64,000 bases of DNA from Pseudomonadota bacterium (GTDB taxonomy: Bacteria > Pseudomonadota > Alphaproteobacteria > Rickettsiales > SXRF01), in the NCBI GenBank assembly GCA_038043465.1, contig JBBTBX010000006.1, positions 79,463 through 143,462 on the forward strand. Direction: 5' to 3'. This document shows positions 12,263-56,357 of the stretch, piece after piece (position 1 is the stretch's first letter; each line of letters starts with the position of its first letter). Both the position numbers and the translations under genes were made by a program. The notes beneath the pieces are model-generated. The model saw nothing but the letters and a program-made list of their open reading frames with translations. It was not told the DNA's origin and searched no databases.

Positions 12263-12451
12263 ATGGACCACGATGAAATCATAACGGTTAAAGAGCTTGC
12301 GGAGTACCTGAAGATTGCAGAAAAAACTGCATACAGATTCCTTGCTGAAGGAACGATTCCAGGGTTTAAAGTGGGCGGTTCATGGCGGTTTCGTAAAAAG
12401 GAAATCGATGAGTGGATTGCTCGTCAGACCGAAAAAAGATTAAGTATATGA
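12263..12451 (+). CDS. Excisionase/MerR-type helix-turn-helix DNA-binding protein
   Basis: 62 aa. VKELAEYLKIAEKTAYRFLAEGTIPGFKVGGSWRFRKKEIDEWI is the typical excisionase-family HTH. Its stop overlaps the next start (ATGA). Confidence 0.75.
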   Translation: MDHDEIITVKELAEYLKIAEKTAYRFLAEGTIPGFKVGGSWRFRKKEIDEWIARQTEKRLSI

Positions 12452-34821: not shown

Positions 34822-34887
34822 AAGAACCTGCCTTTCTAGGGGATACAACTCCCACGATGAGCCTTACACAGAAAATCACAAAAGGCT

Positions 34888-34901
34888 TTGATCTGGATCA
34901 A
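34888..34901. promoter_or_regulatory. FNR/Anr/Dnr-type box TTGATCTGGATCAA
   Basis: Perfect palindromic half-sites read directly from the sequence. It is intergenic, upstream of the small ORF / nnrS unit on the minus strand. Confidence 0.7.
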
Positions 34902-36099: not shown

Positions 36100-36806
36100 G
36101 GTCTTGCTCCTTGCATCATTTTTTCCAGTGGTTTTGCTGTGCCGCCACCGCAGCCACCACTGCCACATCCGCCACTGCCACAGCCCCCCGCTTTGGGAGC
36201 TTCCGCACCGAGAAAATCAATCGGCTTTTCTTCCCATTCTTTGTCGAGCTGCTCGAAATTTACTACTACAGGCGCCTTACGCTCCACTTTTTCTGGCGTT
36301 TTACCCGCCAGCAACGTGAGCGTATCCAGCACCGCACTATACGGGCTGCCACGTTCGGCAAGGCGCTTGCCCAGCGCGACAAGAATGTGGCCTGTATTGG
36401 CGAGTTCTTCGAGTGCTTCTTCTTTCGGTATCATTGAGAGGTATTCGAGGAACACCGGCAGATAATCGGGCAATTCACTGGCGGCGAGGCTGAAGCCTTG
36501 CTCCTTATAACGCTCAGCCAAATCGACCATCGCCTGTCCGCGATCTCGTGATTCGCCATGCACATGCTCGAATAAATGCAAGCTGAGTGAGCGCACACGG
36601 TCAAACGTATCCACATAATCCTCTTGCAAATCCAGCAAATCTTCTCTCTGGAGCTGTGCCGTGAGTGAACGTAAGCCTGTCACCTGCTCCTTACTCACCA
36701 ACGCTTCCTGCTCAATCAGGTCGCATAAATCGGAAGTGCCCTGAAGCCACTCTTCATTCGGATACCACAGCAGGATACCTAGTGCTTTAAAGGTTTTAAC
36801 TGGCAT
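36096..36806 (-). CDS. narJ: Nitrate reductase molybdenum cofactor assembly chaperone, with a Cys-Gly-rich C-terminal tail
   Basis: Start trimmed to the ATG at 36806 (MPVKTFKALGILLWYPNEEW). NarJ-like motifs DYVDTFD and ELPDYLPVFLEYL. The tail reads GGCGSGGCGSGGCGGG. Confidence 0.85.
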   Translation of the reverse strand: MPVKTFKALGILLWYPNEEWLQGTSDLCDLIEQEALVSKEQVTGLRSLTAQLQREDLLDLQEDYVDTFDRVRSLSLHLFEHVHGESRDRGQAMVDLAERYKEQGFSLAASELPDYLPVFLEYLSMIPKEEALEELANTGHILVALGKRLAERGSPYSAVLDTLTLLAGKTPEKVERKAPVVVNFEQLDKEWEEKPIDFLGAEAPKAGGCGSGGCGSGGCGGGTAKPLEKMMQGARP

Positions 36807-38322
36807 GAGTGCCTCCAAATAGATTTTTGCGTTTAGGTTTGTCGAACAGCTGTGCCTCGGAATTGCCGCCAGAGCAGCCATTGCCGAAACTGAAACCGCA
36901 GCCGGAACGAATATCGAACGCTTTCTCCGCATATTCACGGTGCGAAGTGGGGATCACATAGCGGTCTTCGTAATTCGCAATCGCCATGTAGCGGTACATA
37001 TCCTCGACCAGTGCCTGATTCAACCCGACCTGCTCTAGAAGTTCGTTGTTCTGAACTCCGTCCACATGCCGACCGCGCATATAAGCACGCATGGCAAGCA
37101 TACGTTCAAGTGCTACGCGCACTGGTTTTTCTTCGCCTGCCGTGAGCAGGTTAGCAAGATAGGTGAGTGGAATACGCAAGGACTTCACGTCAGGGATCAC
37201 CCCGTTCATGCCCATCTCACCACTTTCGGCAGCATTCTGGATGGGCGAGAGTGGCGGGATATACCAGACCATCGGCAGCGTGCGGTATTCTGGGTGAAGC
37301 GGAAAGGCAATCTTCCATTCCATCGCCATTTTATAGACGGGCGATTTTCTGGCAGATTCCAGCCAGCTTTCGGGAATCCCCTCGGCACGTGCGGCTTTGA
37401 TAACCTCTGGATCATTCGGATCAAGGAACATCTCCAGCTGCGCGTGGTATAGATTCTGCTCATCTTCCACCGAAGCGGCAGCCTCGATTTTATCGGCATC
37501 ATAAAGCAGCACGCCAAGATAGCGGATACGACCTACGCAGGTTTCGGAACACACGGTCGGTTCACCGTTTTCGATGCGCGGATAACAGAAGGTGCATTTT
37601 TCGGACTTGCCCGATTCCCAATTGAAGTAAATCTTCTTGTAGGGGCATGCCGATACGCACATGCGCCAGCCACGGCACTTGTCCTGATCAATCAGCACAA
37701 TGCCATCTTCCTCGCGCTTGTAGATTGCTCCAGATGGGCACGCTGCAACGCAGGCGGGGTTTAGGCAATGCTCGCATAGACGCGGCAGATACATCATGAA
37801 GGTGTTCTCAAACTGGCCATACATTTCTTTTTGGATGTTCTCGAAGTTGTAATCCTTGCTGCGATGCTCAAACTCACCGCCGAGGATTTCCTCCCAGTTT
37901 GGCCCGCCGACGATTTTATCCATCTTCTTGCCGGTAATCACCGAAACGGGACGTGCGGTTGGCATCGTTTTCGCTTCGGGTGATTTATGCAGATGTTCGT
38001 AATCGAAGGTGAATGGCTCGTAATAATCGTCGATAGATGGCAGGTTGGGGTTGGCAAATATATTCGCCAGCGCACGCCATTTTCCGCCCTGCTTGGGGTG
38101 GATTTTGCCGTTCTTCTTGCGCTCCCATCCACCTTTCCAACGATCCTGATTTTCCCAGTCTTTAGGGTAACCAATGCCGGGTTTGGTTTCGACGTTGTTG
38201 AACCACGCATATTCCACGCCACGACGCGAAGTCCAGACGTTTTTACAGGTGACGGAACAGGTATGACAGCCGATACATTTATCGAGGTTCAACACCATGC
38301 CAATTTGTGCTCTTACTTTCAT
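36796..38322 (-). CDS. narH: Respiratory nitrate reductase beta subunit (Fe-S)
   Basis: Start trimmed to the ATG at 38322 (MKVRAQIGMVLNLDKCIGCHTCSVTCKNVW). It has multiple ferredoxin-type Cys clusters and the WYIPPLSP motif. Confidence 0.95.
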   Translation of the reverse strand: MKVRAQIGMVLNLDKCIGCHTCSVTCKNVWTSRRGVEYAWFNNVETKPGIGYPKDWENQDRWKGGWERKKNGKIHPKQGGKWRALANIFANPNLPSIDDYYEPFTFDYEHLHKSPEAKTMPTARPVSVITGKKMDKIVGGPNWEEILGGEFEHRSKDYNFENIQKEMYGQFENTFMMYLPRLCEHCLNPACVAACPSGAIYKREEDGIVLIDQDKCRGWRMCVSACPYKKIYFNWESGKSEKCTFCYPRIENGEPTVCSETCVGRIRYLGVLLYDADKIEAAASVEDEQNLYHAQLEMFLDPNDPEVIKAARAEGIPESWLESARKSPVYKMAMEWKIAFPLHPEYRTLPMVWYIPPLSPIQNAAESGEMGMNGVIPDVKSLRIPLTYLANLLTAGEEKPVRVALERMLAMRAYMRGRHVDGVQNNELLEQVGLNQALVEDMYRYMAIANYEDRYVIPTSHREYAEKAFDIRSGCGFSFGNGCSGGNSEAQLFDKPKRKNLFGGTHAS

Positions 38323-38332
38323 GGTATTTCCC

Positions 38333-41300
38333 CTATTTCGCTGCCGATTCGAGTCTAGGCATTTCACCGCCTAAAGCCGCACCATAATTATCTTCGTTCA
38401 TCCAGTCTATTTTCTCCATTTTGCGAAGGATAATAAACTCATCGCGATTACAGCCGACCGTGCCATAGTAATTAAAATCATAGGCAAGCTGTGCATATCC
38501 GCCGATCATGTGAGTAGGTTTCAACACCGTGCGGGTGACAGAATTGTGAATGCCGCCACGCAGACCTGTGATTTCACTACCCGGCACGTTGATGATTTTC
38601 TCCTGCGCGTGATACATCATAATCATACCTTCTGGCACACGCTGGCTTACCACCGCCCGCGCAGTGAGTGCGCCGTTGGTGTTGTAGGCTTCAACCCAGT
38701 CATTATCGATCACGCCGATTTTCTTGGCATCAATTTCCGAAATCCAAACAATCGGCCCGCCGCGCGAGAGCGTAAGCATCAGCAAATTATCCGTATAGGT
38801 CGAGTGGATGCCCCATTTCTGGTGCGGCGTGATGAAGTTCAGCAGCACCTGCTTGCGGCCTTTGCCGAATTTCTCGATCACGCTTTCGGTGGTTTTCATA
38901 TCCACCGGTGGTTTATATACGCAGAGCGATTCGCCGAAGGCACGCATCCAGCTATGATCCTGATAGAGCTGCTGACGCCCCGTGAGCGTGCGCCACGGAA
39001 TCAACTCATGCACGTTGGTATAACCCGCCGTATAGCTGACATGCTCGGACTCAATCCCGCTCCATGTTGGCGAGGAAATAATCTTCCTCGGCTGTGCCTG
39101 AATATCACGGAAGCGGATTTTTTCATCCTCCCGCGTATCCGCAAGGTGGGCGTGCTCACGGCCTGTGGCTTCGCTCAGCGCATTCCATGCTTTCACCGCC
39201 ACATGACCATTGGTTTCCGGTGCTAGTGTGAGGATAATTTCTGCCGCATCAATCGCGGATTCGATTTTTGGCAGACCTTTGGAAACGCCTTCTTCCGTGA
39301 CGGTGTAATTCAGCTCCGCCAGCAGTTTCAACTCATATTCCGTATTCCAGTTGATACCTTTGCCGCCATTGCCCAGCTTGGCGAGCAGTGGCCCAAGCGA
39401 GGTGAATTTTTTGTAGGTACTCGGGTAATCACGCTCGACTAGGAAGACATTCGGCATGGTTTTACCAGGTATCGGCTCACATTCGCCTTTTTTCCAGTCC
39501 TTCACATCGAAGGCTTGCGCGATTTCATTCGCCGTATCGTGCTTGATCGGGTTCATCACCACATCTTGCTCTACGCCTAGATGCCCGATGCAAACTTCGG
39601 AGAATTTCTTGGCGAGACCTTTGTAAATATCCCAGTCACTGCGCGATTCCCACGCGGGATCAACCGCTGCCGAAAGCGGGTGAATGAATGGGTGCATGTC
39701 GGAAGTATTGAGATCGTTTTTCTCGTACCAGGTCGCGGTTGGCAAGACGATGTCCGAATACATGCAGGTGGTGGACATGCGGAAATCGAGCGTCACCAGC
39801 AGGTCGAGCTTGCCTTCAGGTGCGGTCTCATGCCACACGACATCTTTGGGCTTAGTACCACCAAATTTACCAAGGTCAACGCCTTGCACACCGTGGCTGG
39901 TGCCGAGTAGATGCTTGAGGAAATACTCATGACCTTTGCCACTGGAGCCGAGAATATTCGAACGCCAGACGAACATGTTGCGCGGCCAGTTCTGTGGCGC
40001 ATCTGGGTCATTGCAGGAGAGTTTGAGGTCGCCTGACTTTAACCCTTCGGCGACAGCCTCACCGACATTACGCCCCGATTTTTTGATACTCGCCCCTACT
40101 TCCAGAGGATTGCGCTCTAATTGCGGAGCAGATGGCAGCCAGCCCATACGTTCAGATTTCACATTGCAGTCGATAAACGAAAGCTCTTTCCACTCTGGGT
40201 TATCTTCCAGCGGCGACAAAATCCCCTCTATTGAAAGCCGTTCATAACGCCACTGGTCGGTATGGGCATAGAAGAACGATGTTGAATTCTGTTGACGCGG
40301 CGGGCGGTTCCAGTCGGTTGCAAATGCCAGTGGTGCCCAGCCCGTTTGCGGACGCAGCTTTTCCTGACCCACATAATGACTCCAACCACCGCCAGATTTG
40401 CCGATACAACCGCACATCACCAGCATGTTGATGATAGCGCGGTAGTTCATATCCATGTGATACCAGTGGTTCATCGCCGCACCGATGATCACCATCGATT
40501 TACCATGGGTTTTATGTGCGTTCTCGGCAAATTGACGAGCGACGTTGATGACATGCTCGCGCTTCACGCCGGTGATATGCTCCTGCCACGCCGGTGTGTA
40601 AGGGGTATCATCGTCAAACGAGGTGGCAACATTCGCACCACCCAGCCCGCGATCTACGCCGTAATTTGCAATAAAAAGATCATAGACGGTGGCGACATAC
40701 GCCTCACCCTCTTTGAGCTTCATTTTTACAACAGGCACATTGCGCTCAAGAATGCTGGCGTGATCGGTGCTATTAAAATGTTCATGTTCGATATTCCCAA
40801 AATAAGGGAATGCGACAGAGCCTATTTCTTTTTTGCTATGCTCGATGAGCGACAGCAACGGCCAGATTTCCTCGCCCGTTACTTCATCTTTTGGCTCTAG
40901 GTTCCATTTGCCTTTTTGCCCCCAGCGCGAGCCAACAGTGCCATTGGGGATACGCACGCGTTCTTCTTTGCCGCAGATGATGACGGGTTTCCAATCGGGA
41001 TTGTTATCGGTATTGAGATTTTTATCAAAATCTGAAGCGCGCAGCATACGTTCCGGCACCAGCGCATCGCCGCGCTTCACCATCCGCACGAGGAAGGGCA
41101 TATCAGTATATTGGCGGCAGTAATCGTCGAAATAGTCGCTTTTTCCATTCACATGCCACTCGGACATGATGACATGCCCCATTGCCATCGCAAGCGCGGC
41201 ATCGGTGCCTTGTTTCGGGTGCATCCAGAGATCCGCCAGCTTGGCGACTTCCGAATAATCAGGCGTGACCGCAACCGTTTTAGCACCTTTGTAACGCACC

Positions 41301-42109
41301 TCGGTGAAGAAGTGGGCATCGGGCGTGCGCGTTTGTGGCACGTTGGAACCCCAAGCGATAATAAAGCTGGAGTTATACCAATCCGCTGATTCCGGCACGT
41401 CCGTCTGCTCACCCCAAGTTTGTGGGCTGGAGGGAGGCAAATCGCAGTACCAGTCATAAAAACTCATGCACACACCGCCAATCAGCGATAGGTAGCGGCT
41501 GCCCGCAGCATAGGATACCATCGACATCGCGGGGATGGGCGAGAAGCCGATAATGCGGTCGGGACCGTGTTTCTTTGCGGTATAAACGTTGGCTGCCACA
41601 ATGATCTCATTCACTTCTTCCCAATCGGCGCGTACAAACCCGCCCTTGCCACGCACCTGTTGGTACGATTTGCGGGTGGCTTCGTTGGTGACGATGGATT
41701 CCCATGCATTCACGGGATCTTTGGCGATCACTTTTGCGACACGCCACGCTTTAAGAAGACGGCTACGTACCAACGGATATTTCATTCGGTTGGCACTATA
41801 GAGATACCATGAATAGCTTGCGCCGCGTGAGCAACCGCGCGGTTCATGGTTGGGCATATCAGGGCGGGTGCGCGGATAATCCGTCTGCTGGGTTTCCCAC
41901 GTCACAAGACCGTTTTTGACATAGATTTTCCAACTGCACGAGCCAGTGCAATTCACACCATGCGTCGAGCGCACAATTTTGTCATGCTGCCAACGGCTAC
42001 GGTAAGACTGCTCCCAACCACGCGACTCATCGGTCATCACCCCATGATCGCCCGAGAAATTCTCTGTCTCACGTTTGAAGAAGGTCAGTTTGTCGATAAT
42101 ATGGCTCAT
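38333..42109 (-). CDS. narG: Respiratory nitrate reductase alpha subunit (Mo-bisMGD)
   Basis: 1258 aa. The N-terminus carries the HGVNCTGSCSW FS0 cluster motif, and length and motifs are typical of NarG. Confidence 0.95.
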   Translation of the reverse strand: MSHIIDKLTFFKRETENFSGDHGVMTDESRGWEQSYRSRWQHDKIVRSTHGVNCTGSCSWKIYVKNGLVTWETQQTDYPRTRPDMPNHEPRGCSRGASYSWYLYSANRMKYPLVRSRLLKAWRVAKVIAKDPVNAWESIVTNEATRKSYQQVRGKGGFVRADWEEVNEIIVAANVYTAKKHGPDRIIGFSPIPAMSMVSYAAGSRYLSLIGGVCMSFYDWYCDLPPSSPQTWGEQTDVPESADWYNSSFIIAWGSNVPQTRTPDAHFFTEVRYKGAKTVAVTPDYSEVAKLADLWMHPKQGTDAALAMAMGHVIMSEWHVNGKSDYFDDYCRQYTDMPFLVRMVKRGDALVPERMLRASDFDKNLNTDNNPDWKPVIICGKEERVRIPNGTVGSRWGQKGKWNLEPKDEVTGEEIWPLLSLIEHSKKEIGSVAFPYFGNIEHEHFNSTDHASILERNVPVVKMKLKEGEAYVATVYDLFIANYGVDRGLGGANVATSFDDDTPYTPAWQEHITGVKREHVINVARQFAENAHKTHGKSMVIIGAAMNHWYHMDMNYRAIINMLVMCGCIGKSGGGWSHYVGQEKLRPQTGWAPLAFATDWNRPPRQQNSTSFFYAHTDQWRYERLSIEGILSPLEDNPEWKELSFIDCNVKSERMGWLPSAPQLERNPLEVGASIKKSGRNVGEAVAEGLKSGDLKLSCNDPDAPQNWPRNMFVWRSNILGSSGKGHEYFLKHLLGTSHGVQGVDLGKFGGTKPKDVVWHETAPEGKLDLLVTLDFRMSTTCMYSDIVLPTATWYEKNDLNTSDMHPFIHPLSAAVDPAWESRSDWDIYKGLAKKFSEVCIGHLGVEQDVVMNPIKHDTANEIAQAFDVKDWKKGECEPIPGKTMPNVFLVERDYPSTYKKFTSLGPLLAKLGNGGKGINWNTEYELKLLAELNYTVTEEGVSKGLPKIESAIDAAEIILTLAPETNGHVAVKAWNALSEATGREHAHLADTREDEKIRFRDIQAQPRKIISSPTWSGIESEHVSYTAGYTNVHELIPWRTLTGRQQLYQDHSWMRAFGESLCVYKPPVDMKTTESVIEKFGKGRKQVLLNFITPHQKWGIHSTYTDNLLMLTLSRGGPIVWISEIDAKKIGVIDNDWVEAYNTNGALTARAVVSQRVPEGMIMMYHAQEKIINVPGSEITGLRGGIHNSVTRTVLKPTHMIGGYAQLAYDFNYYGTVGCNRDEFIILRKMEKIDWMNEDNYGAALGGEMPRLESAAK

Positions 42110-42169: not shown

Positions 42170-42183
42170 TTGATATGGATCAA
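42170..42183. promoter_or_regulatory. FNR/Anr/Dnr-type box TTGATATGGATCAA upstream of narG
   Basis: Perfect box in the 79-nt gap between narK and narG, centred about 67 nt upstream of the narG ATG. Confidence 0.7.
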
Positions 42184-42188
42184 CTACC

Positions 42189-43796
42189 CTATGGATTTTG
42201 TACATAGGCATTTTTGCGTAGGTAGAACCACCAGTTGATGACGATGCACAGCGCATAGAATATGGCGAATCCGTAGAGTGCATTTTCTGGCGTGGTGGCT
42301 TTAATCTGCTCACCAAATACCTGCGGAATAATGAAAGCACCGTAGGCCGCCACCGCCGATGTCCAGCCCAACACGGGGCCAGCTTGCTCTTTGTCGAACA
42401 CCACCGCAACGGTGCGGAATGTCGAGCCATTGCCAATGCCTGATGCAAAAAACAAGAGTAGGAACAATAACAGGAACGGAATAAAGTAAACTTCTGGTGT
42501 TGCCGATGCGTAGGCCTGTTTCATGTAATAGGCTACACCCAGCGCACCACCCACCATAAGGAAGGAGATAATTTGCGTGACTTTCGCACCTCCCATTTTA
42601 TCAGCAATCCAGCCACCGATGGGGCGGATAATGGCACCGATGAACGGCCCCATCCACGCATACATTAGCGCGCTGGGGGCGTTGGGGTTCGCGGTGGTGT
42701 GCGTCATCACGCCGTCCACCATCAGATGCTGGAAGCCGAAGATTACTTGAATCGCCAGAGCCAGCGCGGCGGAGTAACCGATAAACGAACCGAAGGTCAT
42801 AGTATAAATGATCGTCATCGCCCAAGTATGCTTGTTATTGAAAATTTTGTACTGGCGAGAAAGATTCTGTTTATAAAGATCTCCAGCAGGAACAAGTTTC
42901 AACAAGAATAATGTGGCAACGATGACGACAGGAATCACCAGCCACTTACTCAGACCATATCCACCGGCTTCTGGTGGTTGCATGAGTATAAATCCAGCCG
43001 CCGCCGTAAATAGCCCAGTGAACAGCATCGCAAAGATCCGTGTAAACGCGCTAAGCAATGACCCTGGATTTGGCGTAACATGAGGAACAACCAGATTATT
43101 CATCCTTGTCCATGTCAGGAAGAAAAGCGGAATCAATAGCACCAGCCACACATAACCAGCATTGTGGATATAGGTTTCGGCACCAGCAGGTATCTTACCA
43201 AATAACCAACCGCTGGCCGATTTCAATATCATTGAGTCCCCGCCGAACACAGCACTTGTCATGACCAGCGGAATGAGAATCTGCATGGTGGTTACACCAA
43301 AATTTCCTAACCCTGCATTCAACCCTAACGCCAACCCCTGCATTTTTTTAGGGAAGAAAAAGCTGATATTTGACATGGAGGAAGCAAAGTTTCCCCCACC
43401 AATCCCAGAAAGCAGCGCGAGCATTTGATACGCCCAAAGAGGAGTATTTGGATTTTGCAGTGCCATGCCTGTCCCTATGGCAGGAATCATCAATAAGGAC
43501 GTTGTCAGGAAGATGGTGTTGCGTCCCCCAGCGATACGAATCATAAACGAACTTGGAATACGCAGTGTTGCGCCAGCCAGACCACCAATCCCCGCCAGCG
43601 TAAACAGTTCCGAAGGCGTAAATGGAAAGCCTAGATTGAGCATCTGCACAGTGACAATGCTCCAATACATCCACACCGCAAAACCACAAAGCAGGCATGG
43701 AATGGAAATCCATAAATTGTTATAGGCGACGAACTTGCCTTCTTTGTGCCAAAATCCCTCGTGATCTGGATCCCAGTGTGTAATCATTGCATTCAT
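42189..43796 (-). CDS. narK: MFS nitrate/nitrite transporter, NarK2-like
   Basis: 535 aa and polytopic. NNP-family glycine-rich motifs are present (GGLAGATLRIP, GGNFASSM...FFP), and it lies immediately upstream of narG. Confidence 0.85.
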   Translation of the reverse strand: MNAMITHWDPDHEGFWHKEGKFVAYNNLWISIPCLLCGFAVWMYWSIVTVQMLNLGFPFTPSELFTLAGIGGLAGATLRIPSSFMIRIAGGRNTIFLTTSLLMIPAIGTGMALQNPNTPLWAYQMLALLSGIGGGNFASSMSNISFFFPKKMQGLALGLNAGLGNFGVTTMQILIPLVMTSAVFGGDSMILKSASGWLFGKIPAGAETYIHNAGYVWLVLLIPLFFLTWTRMNNLVVPHVTPNPGSLLSAFTRIFAMLFTGLFTAAAGFILMQPPEAGGYGLSKWLVIPVVIVATLFLLKLVPAGDLYKQNLSRQYKIFNNKHTWAMTIIYTMTFGSFIGYSAALALAIQVIFGFQHLMVDGVMTHTTANPNAPSALMYAWMGPFIGAIIRPIGGWIADKMGGAKVTQIISFLMVGGALGVAYYMKQAYASATPEVYFIPFLLLFLLLFFASGIGNGSTFRTVAVVFDKEQAGPVLGWTSAVAAYGAFIIPQVFGEQIKATTPENALYGFAIFYALCIVINWWFYLRKNAYVQNP

Positions 43797-43829
43797 ACGA
43801 TCTCCTTTGTTGGCACTTAAAAAATGTGA

Positions 43830-45155
43830 TTAGTGATGTCGGCTACGTCCAGAAGGAGCAGCATCCATTTCAGGGAAGAAGTGCGGACCAGCAAGATCCG
43901 GATGTTGTCTACGCTCCATCAGCATGATGGCGAAATGCATCCAAGTGAGCGCAATAGAAACCAGCAGGAACAGCAGCATGAAGCAGCTTGTCCATACGTT
44001 CGTCAGGTCGTTTAAGATGCCAAAGGCAAGGGGCAAAAAGAACCCGCCCAATCCGCCAATCAGCCCCACTATACCAGCAACAGAGCCTACATTATCAGGA
44101 TAATATACAGGAATATGTTTATAGACAGCGGCCTTGCCAAACGACATAAACAGCCCCATCACAAATACAATCACGGTAAATGGAATAAAACCAAGCCCAG
44201 CACTGAAGCTGATGTCACCCTTAATTCCATGAATTACATAATCAGTTGGAGGATAGCTAAGGACAAAGCAGCACAGAATACAGACAGAAAACGTCCAGTA
44301 CATAACTCTGCGCGCTCCATATTTGTCGGAAAGATAGCCCCCAACAGCGCGAAAGGCAGAACCCGCTACAGAGAAAGCAGCAGCTAGCATTCCCGCTTGT
44401 TTAATATCCATGCCATAAGCCCCCACATAGTAACGTGGCAGCCACAAAGCAAGCGCAACAAACCCGCCAAACACAAAGAAATAATACATAGAGAAACGCC
44501 ATACCTGAAGTTTCTTAAGTGGTTCCAGTGCCATTTTAGTGGTCTTTTTGGCGGCACCTATTTTACGACGCTCTACCAGCTCAGGTTCATCCTTCGTGAC
44601 TATCCAATAGATGATAGCGGTTGCAAACAATACCGTCGCCCATACCTGCGCCACCATGTGCCAGCCATAGGCCACCATCACGAAGGGAGCGATGAATTTA
44701 GTGACCGCTGCACCGATATTGCCCATTCCATAAATGCCAAGTGCCGTGCCCTGACGTTCTTTGCCGTACCATTTGGAGAGATAGGAAATGCCCACCACAA
44801 AGCTGCCACCGGAAATACCCACACCGAGCGCAGTGAGTAGCAGCATATTATAAGTATCCGCATAGGTCAGCATCCAGGTGCTAATCGCAGATGAAATCAT
44901 GACCATCAGCAGGATTGGTCTACCACCATACTGGTCTGCCCAGATGCCAAGCGTCAGACGGATGATCGATCCGGTCAGGATAGGCGTACCGATCAGTAGG
45001 CTGAACTGGGTTTCGGTGAGTCCTAAATCCTGTTTAATCTGCACACCGATAATGGCGAAAATAGTCCATACGGCGAAGCAGATGGTAAAAGCAAAGGTGG
45101 TGCTTGATAGTGCCATTACCTGATCAAATTTTGAAACATTTTTTAGGTCGACCAT
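43830..45155 (-). CDS. narK: MFS nitrate/nitrite transporter, NarK1-like
   Basis: 441 aa, 12 TM-like segments, containing GIWADQYGGRP and GISGGSFVVGISYLSKW. It is the first gene of the nar operon. Confidence 0.85.
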   Translation of the reverse strand: MVDLKNVSKFDQVMALSSTTFAFTICFAVWTIFAIIGVQIKQDLGLTETQFSLLIGTPILTGSIIRLTLGIWADQYGGRPILLMVMISSAISTWMLTYADTYNMLLLTALGVGISGGSFVVGISYLSKWYGKERQGTALGIYGMGNIGAAVTKFIAPFVMVAYGWHMVAQVWATVLFATAIIYWIVTKDEPELVERRKIGAAKKTTKMALEPLKKLQVWRFSMYYFFVFGGFVALALWLPRYYVGAYGMDIKQAGMLAAAFSVAGSAFRAVGGYLSDKYGARRVMYWTFSVCILCCFVLSYPPTDYVIHGIKGDISFSAGLGFIPFTVIVFVMGLFMSFGKAAVYKHIPVYYPDNVGSVAGIVGLIGGLGGFFLPLAFGILNDLTNVWTSCFMLLFLLVSIALTWMHFAIMLMERRQHPDLAGPHFFPEMDAAPSGRSRHH

Positions 45156-45217
45156 AATTAAATCCCAGACGTAATTGAACTGGCTGGAACATCACATGGA
45201 ACCAGTAAATCCGAGAT

Positions 45218-45231
45218 TGATCTGGATCAAT
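45218..45231. promoter_or_regulatory. FNR/Anr/Dnr-type box TTGATCTGGATCAA in the narK / NIT-Fnr divergent region
   Basis: Perfect box, identical to the one at 34888. It is centred about 69 nt upstream of the narK1-like ATG and about 148 nt upstream of the ATG at 45373. Confidence 0.7.
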
Positions 45232-45372: not shown

Positions 45373-46926
45373 ATGACTAACACATTGAACAATCTATGTG
45401 ATTTTATTCACGAAGCGCAGAAAGAGCGCGGTTCGGTGTCCCTTTATCTGCGTAGCAAAAATGGTGAACATTCAGAAGCGATGGAATCACAATTTGCAGT
45501 GGTGGATGAAGTCAGCAAAGCATTAAATAAATTACCGAAGAAGCAAAGCTCCCGCATTGAGCCGTTTTTGAATGCAATTCACTATCTGCCCGCCAAGCGA
45601 AAATATGTAATCGCCAGAATGCTGGAGCCAACAGAAGCTCTGTCTTTTTACACCCGCGATATTGTCGCTCCTGCGATTGAGATTGTGCAGGAACTGGCAG
45701 TACTCGAACCGGGCAACAACCCCGCAAAAGTTTCGGCTTTTATTAATTTTCTTTATTGGAAAGAGCGCGTGGGGCTGGAGCGTGCGCTTGGCACACAACT
45801 GGTCAATATGGATTGGTCGGAAACGCATGATTTCAAAAATCGACTTGAATATATCGTGTCCGAACAACGGGCTTATGAGCGCATGTTTTTAGCGTTGGCA
45901 GATGAAAATGGCCGCAAGGCGGTGGAGGCACTGGAGCGTGATAACGGCATATTCCGCAGGATTCAGGAGATTAACGATAGTCTTGCCAAGGGGAATAGCC
46001 AACAAATTACCAAAACGATTACGGCGGAAGAATGGTTCAACCTGTTTACCGCAAAAATGGATCTGTTGCACGAAGTAGGAAAAAGCATCGCTGGCAATCT
46101 TGCCGCTTCTATTCAGGAGTCCAAACCCAGAGACACCCCAGCAATAAAGGCACTCACCGACGAGCAAGCAGGTATCGAAAGCGGCGTGCGTAGCTACATG
46201 GGCACAATTCAGGCATTACCGTTGTTTGCAGGTCTTGCACCTGATGCCCTGCAAGACATTCTGAAATATGCCCGCGTTGTCAGCCACAACAAAGGGGCGA
46301 TGATTTTCCTGCAAGGCGAACAAGCCTCGCGTTTTTATATTATTCTCGATGGTTGGGTGAAGCTGTTCAAAGGCAATGTCGATGGTCAAGAAGCTGTGCT
46401 TCAGGTGATGACGGTTGGTGAAACGCTTCTTGAAACGGTAATTTTCAGCAATTCCCCTTTCCCCGTAACGGCGCAGGCAGTGGAGCCTGTGAAGCTGCTC
46501 TCCATTCCTGCAACCATTGTGCGCGAGAAACTCCAGAACAATAAAGAACTGGCTATCAATATGCTTTCGACAGTGGCAGGACGCTCGCAGGCACTCATCA
46601 ACCAGTTCGAACAACTCACACTCAAAACCGTCACGCAGCGCGTGGGATGGTTTCTGCTGAAATTGTTTTTAGAAAATGGCGAGCATACTAAAAACATCAA
46701 ACTGCCTTACGATAAATCGCTGATTGCTGGCTATCTGGGCATGAAACCAGAGACTTTCTCGCGCACGCTGCAAGCCTTGAAAGAACAAGGAATTGATATT
46801 GATAAAAACTACGTAAACCTCCCAGATGTCTTCGCACTTTGTGATTATTGCGACATGGAGATGGCCGAAAAATGCAGTCGTGCAGGTACAAAAGAGTGCG
46901 CAAATCCCGAATGTGCCAACGCTTGA
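45373..46926 (+). CDS. NIT (nitrate/nitrite-sensing) domain fused to a Crp/Fnr-family regulator with a C-terminal Cys-rich tail
   Basis: 517 aa. NIT-like motifs: FIHEAQKERGSVSLYL and FINFLYWKERVGLERALG. cNMP-binding-like: FYIILDGWVKLFKGNVDGQEAVLQV. HTH with the FNR-type recognition motif: GYLGMKPETFSRTL. Tail: CDYCDMEMAEKCSRAGTKECANPEC. Confidence 0.75.
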   Translation: MTNTLNNLCDFIHEAQKERGSVSLYLRSKNGEHSEAMESQFAVVDEVSKALNKLPKKQSSRIEPFLNAIHYLPAKRKYVIARMLEPTEALSFYTRDIVAPAIEIVQELAVLEPGNNPAKVSAFINFLYWKERVGLERALGTQLVNMDWSETHDFKNRLEYIVSEQRAYERMFLALADENGRKAVEALERDNGIFRRIQEINDSLAKGNSQQITKTITAEEWFNLFTAKMDLLHEVGKSIAGNLAASIQESKPRDTPAIKALTDEQAGIESGVRSYMGTIQALPLFAGLAPDALQDILKYARVVSHNKGAMIFLQGEQASRFYIILDGWVKLFKGNVDGQEAVLQVMTVGETLLETVIFSNSPFPVTAQAVEPVKLLSIPATIVREKLQNNKELAINMLSTVAGRSQALINQFEQLTLKTVTQRVGWFLLKLFLENGEHTKNIKLPYDKSLIAGYLGMKPETFSRTLQALKEQGIDIDKNYVNLPDVFALCDYCDMEMAEKCSRAGTKECANPECANA

Positions 46927-46954: not shown

Positions 46955-47009
46955 TTGCAGAACATCCTTTTCCTTTTAGCTTCCCCTTATCCGAAGCCTT
47001 AAAGACCTA

Positions 47010-47104
47010 AGCAGACGCGCCGTGTTTGTATGGTTTTCAGGCCGTAATCCTAAGATTACCGGGTAGCGGCGGAAACGCCACTGCCTCCCGCGTTTGGAAA
47101 GGAT
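47010..47104 (+). promoter_or_regulatory. Molybdenum cofactor (Moco) riboswitch candidate in the moaA leader
   Basis: The 3' part CTGCCTCCCGCGTTTGGAAAGGATGTTATG closely parallels my memory of the E. coli moaA motif (..CGCCUCCCGUAUCUGGAAAGGUGUACAUG). P1 is possible between 47013-47019 and 47089-47095. Internal hairpins: GTAATC-CTAA-GATTAC and GGCG-GAAA-CGCC. The RBS lies inside the conserved GGAAAGG. Confidence 0.6.
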
Positions 47105-47107
47105 GTT

Positions 47108-48166
47108 ATGAATATTGCACATATTGAGCGGTCAGCAGACCGTGCCAGCCTTGAGCTCCGCTCCATTGCAAAATCAGGAGATTTTGCAGGGAGCAGACTG
47201 CAAGATGCATTTGGGAGAAAATTCCCGTATCTACGCTTGTCTGTCACGGAAGTGTGCAACTTCCGCTGCACCTATTGCTTGCCTAATGGTTATCAGAAAA
47301 CGGAACGTGATTTCTTAACACTGCCTGAAATCCGCAGGTTGGCTTCAGCCTTTGCTGAGCTTGACACGCAGAAAATTCGTTTAACCGGCGGTGAACCAAC
47401 GCTACGCCGAGATTTGACCAACATTGCCCAGGCAGTGAATGGCATCCTAGGCATTCGCACCGTCGCACTTACCACCAATGGTTACAACCTCAAGGAGAAT
47501 GCCAAGGCTTATTTTGATGCGGGCATTAATGCGCTGAATGTCAGCGTGGATAGCCTTGATCCAGCACGTTTCCACGCCATCACTGGGCAGAATAAGTTAG
47601 CACATGTACTGGAAGGTATTGAAGCAGCAAAGACAGCAGGTTTTACAAAAATCAAGGTTAACAGTGTGCTGCTCAAGGAAGTCACAGATCATACACTGCC
47701 CGATTTTCTGGCGTGGATTAAACGTGATGCGCTTTCGGTGCGCTTTATCGAGCTTATGCAAACGGGTGAAAATCTAGCCTTCTTCAAGCAACACCATATT
47801 AGCGCAGGTATTATTATTCAGCAATTGCTGGAGCATGGATTTATACCCGCCATTCGCAAGCCAGACGCTGGACCAGCGCAGGAATTTACTCATCCAGATT
47901 ATGTTGGGTCGATTGGGGTTATCGCCCCCTACTCCAAGGATTTCTGCAAAAGCTGCAACCGCCTGCGCGTAACCTCACGCGGCAAGCTCATGCTCTGCCT
48001 ATTTGGTGAAGGCGGTTATGATTTGCGTCCATATTTGCAGCACGATGATCAACGTGACGAGTTGATTAATGCCATCGCATCGGCACTACATTTCAAACAT
48101 GAGAGCCATTCCCTGCATCAGGGTTTGACTGGCTCAACACCCCATCTCGCATCGCTCGGAGGATAA
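47108..48166 (+). CDS. moaA: GTP 3',8-cyclase (radical SAM)
   Basis: 352 aa. Contains the CNFRCTYCLP radical-SAM motif and a C-terminal CKSCNRLRVTSRGKLMLCLF cluster. Confidence 0.9.
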   Translation: MNIAHIERSADRASLELRSIAKSGDFAGSRLQDAFGRKFPYLRLSVTEVCNFRCTYCLPNGYQKTERDFLTLPEIRRLASAFAELDTQKIRLTGGEPTLRRDLTNIAQAVNGILGIRTVALTTNGYNLKENAKAYFDAGINALNVSVDSLDPARFHAITGQNKLAHVLEGIEAAKTAGFTKIKVNSVLLKEVTDHTLPDFLAWIKRDALSVRFIELMQTGENLAFFKQHHISAGIIIQQLLEHGFIPAIRKPDAGPAQEFTHPDYVGSIGVIAPYSKDFCKSCNRLRVTSRGKLMLCLFGEGGYDLRPYLQHDDQRDELINAIASALHFKHESHSLHQGLTGSTPHLASLGG

Positions 48167-49150
48167 ATGAAGCCAGCATTTCAAATGATAGACGTAGGAA
48201 ACAAACCCGTGACGCATCGCGTTGCGGTCGCCAGTGGTAAGATCGTCGTCGGGGCGGAAGCCTTCGCGCTAATACGTGACCGCAAGCTGCCCAAGGGTGA
48301 TGTGCTGATGCTGGCGGAAATCGCGGGCATTCAGGGTGCGAAAAAAGCCTATGAGATGATTCCGCTCTGCCACCCGATGGGGCTGGATATGGTGCGCGTT
48401 TTTACGGAACTATTGCCAGAGGAAAATGCCGTGCGCGTGTTCTGCGTTGCCTCGGTGCATGCTAAAACCGGTATTGAGATGGAGGTGCTTGCGGGGGTGA
48501 ATGCCGCGCTGCTTACCATCTGGGATTTGAGCAAAATGATCGAAGCCAATCTTGCCATGCGCAACATTAAACTTCTCGCTAAGAAAGGCGGAAAATCTGG
48601 TCTATGGCTGAACCCTTCTGGTGTTCCTGATTGGGTGATGGAACTGGTCAAGCCACCCGCGCCGAAATTGCTGGCAGGTCGTAAAGCAGCGGTGCTGACG
48701 TTAAGTGACCGTGCCGCCAAGGGCGAATATGAGGATGTTTCGGGCACATCACTCAAGGCGATATTGGAAGAAGCTGGATGTGCCATCTGTGATTATCGCG
48801 TCATCCCCGATGATAAAGAGGGCATTGCCGCCACGGTTCGGGAGATAGTGCAAAACCACACGCCGCATCTTTTGATTACTACCGGTGGCACGGGCGTTTC
48901 ACCGCGTGACTACACACCCGAAGCCTTGCAACCGCTGTTCGATAAAGAAATCCCCGGCGTGGGTGAATTGCTGCGACATGACGGCGCACAGTACACTCCG
49001 CTTTCGTGGAGCAGCCGTGCCGTGGGCGGTATTATCGGAAAAACGCTGGTGATAACGCTGCCAGGCAACCCTGCGGCAGTGAAGGAAGGATTGAGTGCGC
49101 TGTTACCCAAACTGATTCCGCACCTCATCCGCATCATTCACAATGAATGA
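48167..49150 (+). CDS. Fused cyclic pyranopterin monophosphate synthase (MoaC) and MoaB/MogA-type domain
   Basis: 327 aa. The N-terminal half is MoaC-like (MIDVGNKPVTHRVA..., IPLCHPM). The C-terminal half is MogA/MoaB-like (AAVLTLSDRAAKGEYEDVSG, ITTGGTGVSPRD). Confidence 0.85.
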   Translation: MKPAFQMIDVGNKPVTHRVAVASGKIVVGAEAFALIRDRKLPKGDVLMLAEIAGIQGAKKAYEMIPLCHPMGLDMVRVFTELLPEENAVRVFCVASVHAKTGIEMEVLAGVNAALLTIWDLSKMIEANLAMRNIKLLAKKGGKSGLWLNPSGVPDWVMELVKPPAPKLLAGRKAAVLTLSDRAAKGEYEDVSGTSLKAILEEAGCAICDYRVIPDDKEGIAATVREIVQNHTPHLLITTGGTGVSPRDYTPEALQPLFDKEIPGVGELLRHDGAQYTPLSWSSRAVGGIIGKTLVITLPGNPAAVKEGLSALLPKLIPHLIRIIHNE

Positions 49151-49215
49151 TGCTTTATTAATAATGCGCATGGCCGCCCCGCCAACCCCATGCGCGTAAC
49201 GAATGGAGAGAAATA

Positions 49216-50475
49216 ATGAGCATGATTTCCTATGACGATGCGCTGGCGATTGTTCTGACACATGCCAGACAAAGTGCCACCCAGAAACTGCCACTGCTCG
49301 ATGCGCTGGATAAAATAGCTGCGTGCGATGTGCAAAGCCTCATTCAGGTGCCGAGCTTCCGCAACAGCGCGATGGATGGTTTTGCAGTGGTCAGCAGCCA
49401 GCTTGATTCGGCTAGCGAATCGAACCCAATCACGCTGGAAGTTACTTCCGCTATTGCCGCAGGGGATGATGTAGCGACAGCGGATGCAGCCAAAGCCGTG
49501 CAGATCATGACGGGGGCTGCCGTGCCAGAACCTTATGATGCGGTGATTCCAGTGGAGATGGTGGCGCACGTTGACAGCGAAGTCACCTTCACCAAGCCAC
49601 CGCGCCAAGGCGACCATATTCGGCATGCAGGAGAAGATGTCGCACTTGGGCAATGCATTCTTCGCAAAGGCGAACGCATCACGCCAGAAATCATCATGTT
49701 GCTTTCGGCCGTGGGCATTTGCGAGGTGGAAGTAATGCGCCTGTCGCGCTTGCACATTCTCAGCACGGGCAATGAAATCAGTGATGACTATGCCGTGCCT
49801 CTAAAAGGATCGCAGATTTATAACTCCAATGCGCCATATTTATTGGCGGCAGCGCGGCAGCAAAGCCTAGAAGCGCAGTATGAAGGCATCGTGCGCGATG
49901 AACCAGCACTGTTTGAGGCGAAGCTAACTGCCATCACCGAACCTGCGATTATCATCAGCACAGGAGCGGTTTCCAAAGGTGTGTGGGACTTTATTCCTGA
50001 TAGCCTCAAGAAACTGGGCGCAACCATCCATTTCCACCGCGTCAATATCCGCCCTGGCAAGCCGGTGCTGTTTGCGACTCTGCCCAATGGTAGTTATTAT
50101 TTCGGTTTACCGGGAAATCCTATCTCCGCAGCGATTGGGTTTAGTTTTTTTGTGATGCCACTGGTGCGTGCGTTGCATTGTATCGCACAGCCTGCACTGC
50201 TCACCGCTAAACTTGCAGGCAGTTTCACCAAGAAAGGCAATTTCCTCCAATTCCTGAAAGCGGCTCTTGCGGTGGATGCGGATGGGCAACTCATCGCTGA
50301 TATTTCTGAGGGACAGGAATCGTTCAAGATCAGCCCGATGGCTGCAAATAATGCGTGGGTGGTGCTGGATGGAGCCAAGAACCAGTGGAGTGCTGGCGAC
50401 ACAGTGGTGGTGATTCCTTACGGTGAAATCATTCCAAACACACGCAGGGAGGCAGCCGTATGTCAGGCAGCATAA
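49216..50475 (+). CDS. moeA: Molybdopterin molybdenumtransferase
   Basis: 419 aa. Contains SFRNSAMDGFAV, STGNEI, ISTGAVSKG and IRPGKPVLFA, as in MoeA. Confidence 0.9.
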   Translation: MSMISYDDALAIVLTHARQSATQKLPLLDALDKIAACDVQSLIQVPSFRNSAMDGFAVVSSQLDSASESNPITLEVTSAIAAGDDVATADAAKAVQIMTGAAVPEPYDAVIPVEMVAHVDSEVTFTKPPRQGDHIRHAGEDVALGQCILRKGERITPEIIMLLSAVGICEVEVMRLSRLHILSTGNEISDDYAVPLKGSQIYNSNAPYLLAAARQQSLEAQYEGIVRDEPALFEAKLTAITEPAIIISTGAVSKGVWDFIPDSLKKLGATIHFHRVNIRPGKPVLFATLPNGSYYFGLPGNPISAAIGFSFFVMPLVRALHCIAQPALLTAKLAGSFTKKGNFLQFLKAALAVDADGQLIADISEGQESFKISPMAANNAWVVLDGAKNQWSAGDTVVVIPYGEIIPNTRREAAVCQAA

Positions 50476-50735
50476 CCCTTACCATCAGCCTGTTCGGCGC
50501 GTTCAGACCGTATGGCAACGGCGAAACAATGACGCTGGAAGTACCGCAAGGTGTGAATGTCAGAGAAGTAAAAAACCATCTGAAAGTAGCGTTGAAAAAA
50601 GCACGAGCAGATTTTGATAAGGCGGCACTGGTGGATGAATCGGCATTGGCAGACGATACGCAAATCCTGGCCGAAGATATGACGATAAGCACCAGCACCA
50701 CATTGGCTATTTTGCCGCCCGTGTGTGGGGGATAA
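50460..50735 (+). CDS. moaD: Molybdopterin synthase sulfur carrier subunit
   Basis: 91 aa ending in the PPVCGG C-terminal Gly-Gly, positioned between moeA and moaE. Confidence 0.8.
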   Translation: MSGSITLTISLFGAFRPYGNGETMTLEVPQGVNVREVKNHLKVALKKARADFDKAALVDESALADDTQILAEDMTISTSTTLAILPPVCGG

Positions 50736-50736
50736 C

Positions 50737-51189
50737 ATGACGGAATCCATCTATACTGGCATTAGTGAAGAGCCACTTTCCATCCAGAAGGCAGCAGATT
50801 TTGTTGATGTGGCGGAGAATGGCGCGCTGAATATGTTTATCGGCAAGGTGCGTAATCACAATATGGGCAAAGCCGTAAATGCCGTAAGTTACGATGTATT
50901 TGCCCCGCTCGCCTGCAATGTATTTCATGAATTGTGCGCGGAAGCGAAGGCGCAATTCGGCGAGCGTCTACGGCTGTATATCGAGCATTACAAAGGGAGG
51001 CTTACGATTGGTGGCATCAGCGTCATCATTGCTGTCGGCTCACCACACCGTGATGAATCTTTTAAGGCCTGTCGTTATCTCATCGAACAGCTAAAAATCC
51101 GTGCGCCGGTGTGGAAGCAAGAGCATTATGTGGACGGCGATAGCGAGTGGGTAAAAGGCCATGCGCTTTGTGGGCATCACCATGACTGA
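50737..51189 (+). CDS. moaE: Molybdopterin synthase catalytic subunit
   Basis: Start placed at the ATG at 50737, 2 nt after the moaD stop. Contains GALNMFIGKVRNHN and APVWKQEHY, as in MoaE. Confidence 0.85.
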   Translation: MTESIYTGISEEPLSIQKAADFVDVAENGALNMFIGKVRNHNMGKAVNAVSYDVFAPLACNVFHELCAEAKAQFGERLRLYIEHYKGRLTIGGISVIIAVGSPHRDESFKACRYLIEQLKIRAPVWKQEHYVDGDSEWVKGHALCGHHHD

Positions 51190-51766
51190 TATGGCCGCCG
51201 TCATTTTGGTCGGGGGAAAATCCTCGCGCATGGGGCGGGATAAGGCAACACTGCCCTATCGCGACAAACGACTGGTGGATGTGGTAGCTGGTGTGGTTCG
51301 CGATGCTGGCATAAAAGACATTTATGTCAGTGGCGAAATGGAAGGATATTCTTCATTGCCCGATCTCATTGCAGAATGCGGGCCGGTCGGTGGCATCTGC
51401 TCCAGTGCAGTGAGGCTGTATAAAACCCATGCCAGCGCATTATTTATTCCCGTGGACATGCCACGCTTGAACACAGAATTACTGCGCCACTTCATCAGCG
51501 CATATCACGGGAATGCCTGTCATTTTGAAGATCATCCGCTGCCTTGCATCCTAACATTGGATAGAAAAATCATGCGGCACATCGATGAAGCTGCACAAAC
51601 GCTCGCCTGTAAACAAAAGCTATCGGTGCGAGCGTTTCTGAACAGTGCTGAAGCAGAAATGATTCCTGTTCCAGAACACCTGAAACTAGCACTTACCAAC
51701 ACTAATACGCCAGAAGAATGGCAGGAGGCCCAATGGGATATGGTTCATGAATCTACGCATCAGTGA
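51182..51766 (+). CDS. mobA: Molybdenum cofactor guanylyltransferase
   Basis: AAVILVGGKSSRMGRDKATLPY is the N-terminal MobA motif. The start could be either 51182 or 51191. Confidence 0.8.
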   Translation: MTDMAAVILVGGKSSRMGRDKATLPYRDKRLVDVVAGVVRDAGIKDIYVSGEMEGYSSLPDLIAECGPVGGICSSAVRLYKTHASALFIPVDMPRLNTELLRHFISAYHGNACHFEDHPLPCILTLDRKIMRHIDEAAQTLACKQKLSVRAFLNSAEAEMIPVPEHLKLALTNTNTPEEWQEAQWDMVHESTHQ

Positions 51767-53219: not shown

Positions 53220-53233
53220 TTGATACAGATCAA
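53220..53233. promoter_or_regulatory. FNR/Anr/Dnr-type box TTGATACAGATCAA in the moeB / tauE divergent region
   Basis: Perfect box, centred about 56 nt upstream of the ATG at 53283 and about 42 nt upstream of the moeB ATG. Confidence 0.65.
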
Positions 53234-56343: not shown

Positions 56344-56357
56344 TTGATTTGCATCAA
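56344..56357. promoter_or_regulatory. FNR/Anr/Dnr-type box TTGATTTGCATCAA in the ompW / ydcH divergent region
   Basis: Perfect box centred about 61 nt upstream of the ompW ATG and about 64 nt upstream of the ydcH-like ATG. Confidence 0.65.

Follow-up and report, generated by a model that had tools for sequence, protein, structure and literature searches.

Model nitrate respirers use two regulators, the O2 sensor FNR and the nitrate sensor NarXL (NarR in Paracoccus), and for many environmental bacteria no nitrate sensor of the NarXL or NarR type is known. Here we describe a gene encoding a NIT domain fused to a Crp/Fnr module with a four-cysteine tail, located in a 64,000-nucleotide stretch of DNA (hereafter the window) from a Pseudomonadota bacterium placed in the Rickettsiales (assembly GCA_038043465.1, contig JBBTBX010000006.1, positions 79,463 to 143,462). 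On balance, we favour the view that this protein, hereafter the regulator, is a cytoplasmic one-component, nitrate- or nitrite-dependent activator of narK1-narK2-narGHJI and of the moa genes, to which a metal centre on the tail may add O2 or NO sensing.

The closest described systems each share part of this arrangement. In Escherichia coli, the nar output needs both anoxia and nitrate signals, and FNR-type boxes are present at the promoters, as in the window. However, FNR carries an N-terminal C-x2-C-x5-C motif plus a fourth, central cysteine, whereas the conserved cysteines of the regulator are C-terminal, and the NarXL/NarQP systems sense nitrate in the periplasm through a membrane kinase, whereas the regulator would sense it in the cytoplasm as a single soluble protein. 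NarR of Paracoccus (P. pantotrophus/denitrificans), an FNR-type protein, activates narKGHJI in response to nitrate or nitrite and is described as taking the place of NarXL in Alphaproteobacteria (PMC8139620). Like the regulator, it is a Crp/Fnr protein encoded divergently from narK, with an E-x2-SR helix (PESLSR in NarR, PETFSR in the regulator), and by its context the regulator fills the same nitrate-signal role where no NarXL is seen. In the P. pantotrophus narR-narK region, taken for comparison from an unannotated replicon, the box TTGATCCAGATCAA matches the narK1/regulator box of the window letter for letter when read on the opposite strand. In contrast to the regulator, NarR (~233-255 amino acids, aa) has neither a NIT domain nor C-terminal cysteines; it shares 27% identity with the Crp module of the regulator and scores 337.2 bits against NCBIfam NF006901 ('FtrB', cut-off 211 bits), compared to 120.6 bits for the regulator. 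Orthology is thus excluded, and the regulator family is a positional, and probably a functional, analogue of NarR. No explanation of how NarR senses nitrate was found in the accessible literature, whereas the regulator has a dedicated sensor domain.

That sensor domain links it to NasR of Klebsiella oxytoca (NIT-ANTAR, PDB 4AKK), a NIT-linker-output protein that is autoinhibited until nitrate binds (PMC12591593, PMC7496416). Both proteins combine a cytoplasmic N-terminal NIT domain of the same fold, with the E175/R176 pocket positions of NasR conserved, a disordered linker and a nucleic-acid-binding output. The output is however an RNA-binding ANTAR domain in NasR and a DNA-binding Crp/Fnr module in the regulator, the associated genes are assimilatory nas genes rather than respiratory nar genes, and only the regulator has the four-cysteine tail. 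The Fnr proteins of Bacillus subtilis and B. cereus likewise carry a cysteine cluster in a C-terminal extension right after the winged helix-turn-helix (wHTH) (PMC3520743, PMC12937710), where C-x2-C-x4-C and Asp141 bind an O2-sensing [4Fe-4S] cluster (PMC3520743). Compared by published motif only, this B. subtilis site differs from the four cysteines of the regulator, spaced x2/x7/x7; moreover, Bacillus Fnr lacks NIT and belongs to Firmicutes, whereas the hosts of the regulator are Proteobacteria. According to a 2026 review, Gram-negative bacteria typically have N-terminal clusters and Gram-positive bacteria C-terminal ones (PMC12937710). DNR, NnrR-type proteins and SPOA0323, finally, are the nearest solved and annotated relatives of the Crp module and share the E-x2-SR helix and the control of N-oxide respiration, but they are ~230 aa long, lack both NIT and cysteine tail, lie beside nor/nnrS and not nar, and are NO-responsive.

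Architecture and conservation of the regulator

One continuous reading frame spans the NIT domain, the Crp/Fnr module and the tail (Table 1), and three Pfam domains, NIT, cNMP_binding and HTH_Crp_2, each score above their curated cut-offs in the 517-aa protein. The preliminary description, made from the sequence alone, had proposed this open reading frame (ORF) with the NIT motifs AQKERGSVSLYL and WKERVGLERALG, the PETFSR helix and the tail CDYCDMEMAEKCSRAGTKECANPEC. All are present in the translation (the NIT motifs at aa 15-26 and aa 129-140), and its domain assignment is supported by Pfam for the NIT domain, the cNMP-binding barrel and the FNR-type HTH, and by fold as well for NIT. The five cysteines that it had placed in 24 residues at the C-terminus are all there, in a span of 25. 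No 19-residue stretch of the regulator reaches membrane-helix level in hydropathy (maximum Kyte-Doolittle value 1.34), which argues for a soluble, cytoplasmic protein. The full-length AlphaFold2 (AF2) model has a mean pLDDT (predicted local distance difference test) of 83.6 and a pTM (predicted TM-score) of 0.56, and comprises an all-helical region (aa 2-240, pLDDT ~90), the barrel (aa 301-379), the C-helix (aa 391-417), the winged HTH (aa 420-482) and a fairly confident C-terminal tail. Across the family alignment the linker varies in length and sequence, yet it is always present.

The NIT assignment rests on both profile and fold. The Pfam match scores 104.7 bits for a cut-off of 24.9 and covers profile positions 1-238 of 239. 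As Crp matches crowd out NasR in Foldseek searches with the full-length model, a NIT-only AF2 model (pLDDT 92, pTM 0.91) was used for the fold search, and NasR 4AKK was its only PDB match at E ≤ 0.001 (TM-score 0.76, probability 1.0). The family profile finds NasR 4AKK with an E-value of 4.5e-19; in a single-sequence phmmer search of the NIT region against the PDB, the NasR match is weak (E 0.079), and the two NIT domains share only ~21% identity. In two family alignments (32 and 82 sequences), the NIT residues H13, Q16, E18, R19, Y93, K130 and W221 are invariant, G134 is invariant among the 32 and at least 90% conserved among the 82 sequences, and E131, E136 and R137 are kept in at least 90% of the sequences. 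In the phmmer alignment, R19 pairs with R77 of the NasR chain and E136-R137 with E202-R203. Chain numbering equals native numbering plus 27 (chain Q201-E202-R203 being native Q174-E175-R176), so R19 corresponds to R50, reportedly the other arginine of the nitrate pocket, and E136/R137 to E175/R176. A role of E175/R176 in this pocket has been described (PMC7496416).

The C-terminal half superposes with TMt values of 0.8-0.86 on GlxR, Mycobacterium tuberculosis CRP and Aliivibrio fischeri FNR in Foldseek, and DSSP analysis of the model places strands at aa 301-379 and a helix at aa 391-417. In the recognition helix, neither alignment shows any variation at T461, S463 or R464, while K458 and E460 are invariant among the 32 sequences and kept in at least 90% of the 82. 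The E-x2-SR motif is kept family-wide, as PETFSR, REVFSR (SUP05 members) or REGFSR, and such a helix is the signature of proteins reading TTGAT-N4-ATCAA boxes. The solved structures nearest to the family profile are Ruegeria SPOA0323 (3FX3/3H3Z; E 1.6e-56, ~36% identity) and Pseudomonas aeruginosa DNR (3DKW; E 6.5e-45). In a plasmid search, annotated relatives at 37-40% identity adjoin nor, nnrS and hmp genes and not nar, which assigns these nearest annotated relatives to the NnrR/Dnr type. Two other identities were rejected. The regulator is not FNR proper, as it scores 35 bits against NF008365 (cut-off 228) and has no N-terminal cluster, its sole cysteine outside the tail being the non-conserved C9; nor is it the cAMP-binding CRP equivalog, with 38 bits against NF008732 (cut-off 266).

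The cysteine tail is a genuine feature of the family, four of its five cysteines being invariant across homologues. The pattern C-x2-C-x(5-9)-C-x(5-9)-C was found in 116/116 full-length homologues of a first search and in 27 of 28 additional clusters defined at 50% identity. Judging from these residues, the tail most likely binds a metal centre beside the HTH. An O2- or NO-labile [4Fe-4S] cluster is favoured by analogy with Bacillus-type Fnr, although the sequence would fit either Fe-S or Zn. The strict co-occurrence of NIT and the four-cysteine tail suggests that the tail matters for function.

The identical 517-aa protein is encoded on 10 contigs from separate assemblies, one of them a 468-kb groundwater-metagenome contig, and every public run that carries the locus is a DNA metagenome from groundwater or an aquifer. 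A word-indexed protein search returned 262 relatives; more than 110 clusters of 505-547 aa, with 37-91% identity, have the same three Pfam domains. An exhaustive NIT-only search added further 50%-identity clusters of 490-550 aa, and ten of these, chosen for lacking a match to the motif pattern, all proved to be NIT-cNMP-HTH_Crp proteins by domain check. In total, more than 140 clusters have the same architecture and length, and the architecture is kept down to ~25% identity. The fusion occurs in both Alphaproteobacteria and Gammaproteobacteria. Its members bear generic database names such as 'CRP-like cAMP-binding protein' or 'nitrate- and nitrite sensing domain-containing protein'. The preliminary description knew of no characterised NIT-Crp/Fnr fusion, and a full-text literature search found no paper describing one; most subscription papers lay outside the reach of this search, so the absence is no proof. 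The component domains are known, whereas their combination is uncharacterised and widespread.

In a rough neighbour-joining tree without bootstrap, the four-cysteine modules form one clade apart from NnrR-like proteins and NarR, and a few short forms lacking NIT are nested within it, which suggests an ancestral NIT fusion with occasional loss. One such form is encoded in a Cardiobacteriaceae metagenome-assembled genome (MAG; locus L074, 7911-8711): a 266-aa NIT-less Crp/Fnr protein with the same four-cysteine tail and the helix RETFSR. Its gene occupies the same slot, between narK2-narGHJ and moaA, and thus provides a natural 'minus-NIT' comparator. An Emcibacteraceae MAG (L024) has two NIT-Crp-type genes beside nar (8001-9557 and 11095-12645), whose spacing of ~1.5 kb suggests a recent duplication. 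In the 'Rickettsiales' MAG STL-PRO43 (L065, ~7996-9300) the regulator copy is in fragments, as are the moa genes around it, so that an indel-rich assembly is more likely than a true pseudogene.

Genomic setting, FNR-type boxes and the stand-alone paralogue

As the preliminary description had proposed, the regulator gene lies divergent from narK, with narK1 on the opposite strand and 217 bp between the two genes. The narGHJI genes follow narK1 and narK2, and genes for molybdenum cofactor (Moco) synthesis lie downstream of the regulator. Synteny was sampled with one genome per GTDB species, neighbours being mapped by tblastn in the resulting 79 loci. The order narH-narG-narK2-narK1, then the divergent regulator followed by moaA, recurs in most of these loci, and synteny with narK is seen in ~45. 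Among Alphaproteobacteria, the carriers include the cultured Asticcacaulis (A. tiandongensis and Asticcacaulis sp. W401b) and Pseudaquidulcibacter saccharophilus (strain SZ9) and MAGs labelled Emcibacter, Kordiimonadaceae, Robiginitomaculum, Hyphomonadaceae, Sphingomonadales and 'Rickettsiales'; the gammaproteobacterial carriers include SUP05, Thiodubiliella, a Bathymodiolus symbiont, and Alcanivoracaceae and Lysobacterales MAGs. OZ244129.1, OZ244955.1 and OY821614.1 are examples of genome records with the gene. Two alternative layouts were observed. In two MAGs (L017 and L062, ~7989-9521) the regulator follows narI on the same strand, and in Sphingomonadales MAGs (L018 and L019) the regulator is followed by mobA, a second, oppositely oriented Crp-like gene, and then narK1-narK2-narG on the strand of the regulator. 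The narXL genes that had been reported missing are indeed not seen within the window, where Pfam detected no histidine-kinase or response-regulator domain in 44 ORFs of at least 150 aa (six further ones overlap annotated genes).

The TTGAT-N4-ATCAA boxes first pointed out in the preliminary description are strongly enriched. Six perfect copies are present in the window, all intergenic, compared to 0.075 expected from shuffled sequences; with one mismatch allowed, 14 are observed for 4.5 expected. They also recur beside the gene in related loci, where boxes were counted at up to one mismatch with a background rate of 0.07 per 400 bp: 37/66 loci have a box in the 400 bp preceding the regulator, and 31/68 have one just past its stop codon. 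A box is also found in 29 of the 44 intergenic regions divergent from narK1, mostly 58-88 bp from the narK1 start, a distance that, for the 45217-45230 box too, is consistent with a class-II activator site and a short leader. The narK2-narG box, in contrast, is conserved in only 1/45 related loci and was discarded as part of the core design of the family. Together, the boxes at nar, moa, nnrS, moeB/TauE and ompW would outline a small putative anaerobic regulon in the window.

Since the box past the regulator stop codon precedes a full-length Moco riboswitch, the moa operon appears to have its own FNR-type promoter plus riboswitch, and it may thus combine an anaerobic promoter with cofactor feedback. 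E. coli moaABCDE likewise combines the two.

The window also encodes a stand-alone Crp/Fnr paralogue, which shares 30% identity with the Crp module of the regulator and adjoins ccoG, a P-type ATPase gene and ccoNOP (cbb3 oxidase). It has no N-terminal cysteine cluster, and its best NCBIfam match is FtrB (103 bits, below the cut-off). Its C-x2-C-x5-C tail has the spacing of the N-terminal motif of E. coli FNR, placed C-terminally as in Bacillus Fnr. Judging from this motif and its neighbours, the paralogue is probably the O2 sensor of the host.

Table 1. Coordinates in the window of the regulator, its domains and the associated genes, boxes and RNA element.
Feature	Position	Strand	Remarks
Regulator gene, NIT-Crp/Fnr-4Cys	45373-46926 (stop codon included)	+	Single ORF, ATG start, 517 aa
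NIT domain (aa 10-243)	45400-46101	+	Pfam PF08376, E 1.3e-29; all-helical double four-helix bundle
NIT-Crp linker (aa ~244-275)	46102-46197	+	Variable; predicted disordered at aa 247-261 (pLDDT <50)
cNMP-binding-like beta-barrel (aa 304-390) and long C-helix (aa 391-417)	46282-46623	+	Pfam cNMP_binding, E 1.6e-18
Crp-type winged HTH (aa 422-491)	46636-46845	+	Pfam HTH_Crp_2, E 2.9e-11
Recognition helix K458-P-E460-T-F-S463-R464	46744-46764	+	PETFSR = aa 459-464
Tail C490-x2-C493-x7-C501-x7-C509 (invariant) and variable C514	46840-46914	+	Alignments of 32 and 82 sequences
narK1 (43830-45155) and narK2 (42189-43796), major facilitator superfamily (MFS) nitrate/nitrite transporters	42189-45155	-	Pfam MFS_1; divergent from regulator
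narGHJI, respiratory nitrate reductase	35410-42109	-	Pfam alpha, beta, delta and gamma subunits
moaA, moaC-moaB/mog fusion, moeA, moaE, mobA (Moco synthesis)	47108-51766	+	Pfam; downstream of regulator
Moco riboswitch, moaA leader	46977-47120	+	Rfam RF01055, 70 bits (gathering score 36), E 8e-15, full-length
Perfect FNR-type box TTGATCTGGATCAA	45217-45230		narK1/regulator intergenic region; centre 68.5 bp from narK1 ATG and 149.5 bp from regulator ATG
Perfect FNR-type box TTGATCCACATCAA	46941-46954		15 bp past regulator stop, upstream of moa operon
Perfect FNR-type box	42170-42183		Between narK2 and narG; lineage-specific
Perfect FNR-type box	53220-53233		Between moeB (ThiF/rhodanese) and TauE-like exporter gene
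Perfect FNR-type box	56344-56357		Upstream of ompW
Perfect FNR-type box	34888-34901		Downstream of 156-aa ORF following narI; ~500 bp upstream of nnrS
Stand-alone Crp/Fnr paralogue, 241 aa	54537-55262	+	PETLSR; C-terminal C-x2-C-x5-C

Several further observations concern the surroundings. The 156-aa ORF directly after narI (34940-35410, minus strand) has no Pfam match, and its position suggests a nar accessory gene. The nnrS gene (33185-34392, minus strand) is split over two frames, an N-terminal part at 33988-34392 and the remainder at 33185-34228, which indicates a frameshift, either a pseudogene or a sequence error. Between nnrS and the 34888-34901 box lies only an unsupported 83-aa cysteine-rich ORF (34597-34848) without a Pfam match. 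Positions 1-33000 have a GC content of 0.40-0.46, compared to ~0.50, and resemble an integrated mobile element beside a tRNA gene (2804-2876). This region holds serine recombinases (3104-4765 and 24344-25906), a type III restriction helicase and methylase (12412-18407), a ParB-methylase, a UvrD-like helicase, RepB/ParB pairs, GIY-YIG proteins and a 1291-aa SMC/AAA protein (8255-12130) whose C-terminus gives a weak S24-peptidase match below threshold.

Proposed mechanism and competing explanations

From the computed domain composition, folds, conservation, synteny and boxes, we infer a ligand, a metal centre, DNA binding, a direction of regulation and an allosteric route, which would fit together as follows. 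Nitrate or nitrite imported by NarK would bind the N-terminal NIT domain through the Arg/Glu positions shared with NasR, and the signal would reach the Crp/Fnr module across the flexible linker. If the protein works like NasR, the ligand would relieve autoinhibition; by analogy with the N-terminal sensor of FNR, it could favour a DNA-binding dimer. The E-x2-SR helix would then bind TTGAT-N4-ATCAA boxes, at a class-II-like site at narK1 and at another one before the moaA Moco riboswitch. The C-x2-C-x7-C-x7-C tail could hold a [4Fe-4S] cluster that is labile towards O2 or NO, similar to that of Bacillus-type Fnr; a single polypeptide would then require nitrate and anoxia together. We put forward more tentatively that the regulator is a two-input AND gate, in which cytoplasmic nitrate or nitrite bound to NIT and the O2- or NO-labile Fe-S cluster on the four-cysteine tail would replace FNR plus NarXL, or FnrP plus NarR.

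Several points weigh against this reading. Fifteen of the 44 divergent intergenic regions have no box at up to one mismatch, the three SUP05-type loci among them. The paralogue also carries E-x2-SR and could occupy the same boxes, so that these are not assignable to the NIT regulator alone. To our knowledge, the cysteine spacing of the tail is unlike any characterised Fe-S regulator motif, and a structural Zn site fits equally. With a pTM of 0.56, the relative placement of the domains in the monomer model is unreliable, and the model is thus uninformative on their packing. The public runs carrying the regulator gene include no RNA run. Finally, P. aeruginosa PA4520 has a NIT domain without affinity for nitrate or nitrite, and NIT has been proposed to be a superfamily with differing ligands (PMC6381276). 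NIT membership alone is therefore no proof of a nitrate or nitrite ligand, and linkage to nar is needed as an argument; it is mainly the near-obligate linkage of the regulator to nitrate transporter and reductase genes that points to nitrate or nitrite.

The alternative that survives best is that the regulator senses nitrate only, the tail being a structural zinc site that stabilises the wHTH end and conveys no redox signal, with O2 sensed elsewhere, for instance by the paralogue. Such a regulator would mirror the two-protein FnrP plus NarR logic of Paracoccus, in which NarR functions without any cluster (PMC8139620). This division of labour is in line with the presence, next to the cbb3 oxidase genes, of a separate paralogue that ends in a C-x2-C-x5-C motif of its own, and four invariant cysteines with one CxxC knuckle are compatible with Zn(Cys)4. 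Classic zinc ribbons have two such knuckles, however, and a lone cysteine at 7-residue spacing is nearer to Fe-S regulator motifs. Furthermore, the one characterised C-terminal cysteine cluster among Crp/Fnr proteins is a [4Fe-4S] O2 sensor (PMC3520743), and the co-occurrence of NIT and tail, strict as it is, suggests that the tail is functional. Structural zinc without O2 sensing therefore seems doubtful to us, yet a real possibility.

The PA4520 precedent, with the differing ligands proposed for the superfamily, raises the question of whether NIT binds nitrate or nitrite at all (PMC6381276). It might instead bind another small molecule or serve as a dimerisation or autoinhibition scaffold, an N-oxide signal then entering as NO at a cysteine-bound cluster or at a DNR-like barrel. 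The similarity of the Crp module to NO-responsive DNR/NnrR-type proteins (3DKW being the DNR structure cited above) and the nor, nnrS and hmp genes beside the nearest annotated relatives are compatible with such a route. On the other hand, the regulator gene is almost invariably found beside nitrate transporter and reductase genes, not nir or nor, the NasR pocket positions are conserved, and NasR is the only significant structural match of the NIT domain, all of which make a NIT domain blind to nitrate and nitrite unlikely.

The direction of regulation could also be reversed: without nitrate, the regulator would occupy the boxes or heterodimerise with the paralogue and so block activation, and nitrate would release it. 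Two proteins with the same E-x2-SR helix facing one set of boxes would suit repression or anti-activation of this kind, and the 149.5 bp between the narK1/regulator box and the regulator start is an unusual distance for self-activation. But a box ~58-88 bp from the narK1 start codon fits class-II activation, and most characterised relatives in nitrate and denitrification control (FNR, DNR, NnrR and NarR) are activators (PMC8139620), which renders a repressor highly improbable. Lastly, the concern that the fusion merely joins adjacent genes through a frameshift or misassembly can be dismissed in view of the 10 independent contigs, the more than 140 clusters of the same length and the continuous frame, with no evidence found in its support.

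Implications for nitrate-respiring bacteria

Activation by a nitrate- or nitrite-bound NIT domain, the reading we prefer, would offer a testable answer to how nar genes are controlled in a broad range of nitrate reducers that extends from groundwater Alphaproteobacteria to symbionts of the SUP05 type and their relatives. What is proposed is a soluble protein whose NIT domain reads cytoplasmic nitrate and directly drives an FNR-type DNA-binding module. The cultured hosts Asticcacaulis and Pseudaquidulcibacter saccharophilus make the family amenable to such tests.

An Fe-S cluster on the tail would let one protein integrate the nitrate signal with the oxygen signal, and it would bring to Proteobacteria, for the first time, the C-terminal-cluster design that is known only from Bacillus-type Fnr. 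If the AND gate is true, the regulator would be the main nar switch of abundant uncultured groundwater and marine Alphaproteobacteria and of SUP05-type sulfur oxidisers. In practical terms, the gene should serve well to mark and predict nitrate-inducible nar expression in metagenomes, and it offers a compact candidate part for nitrate biosensors.

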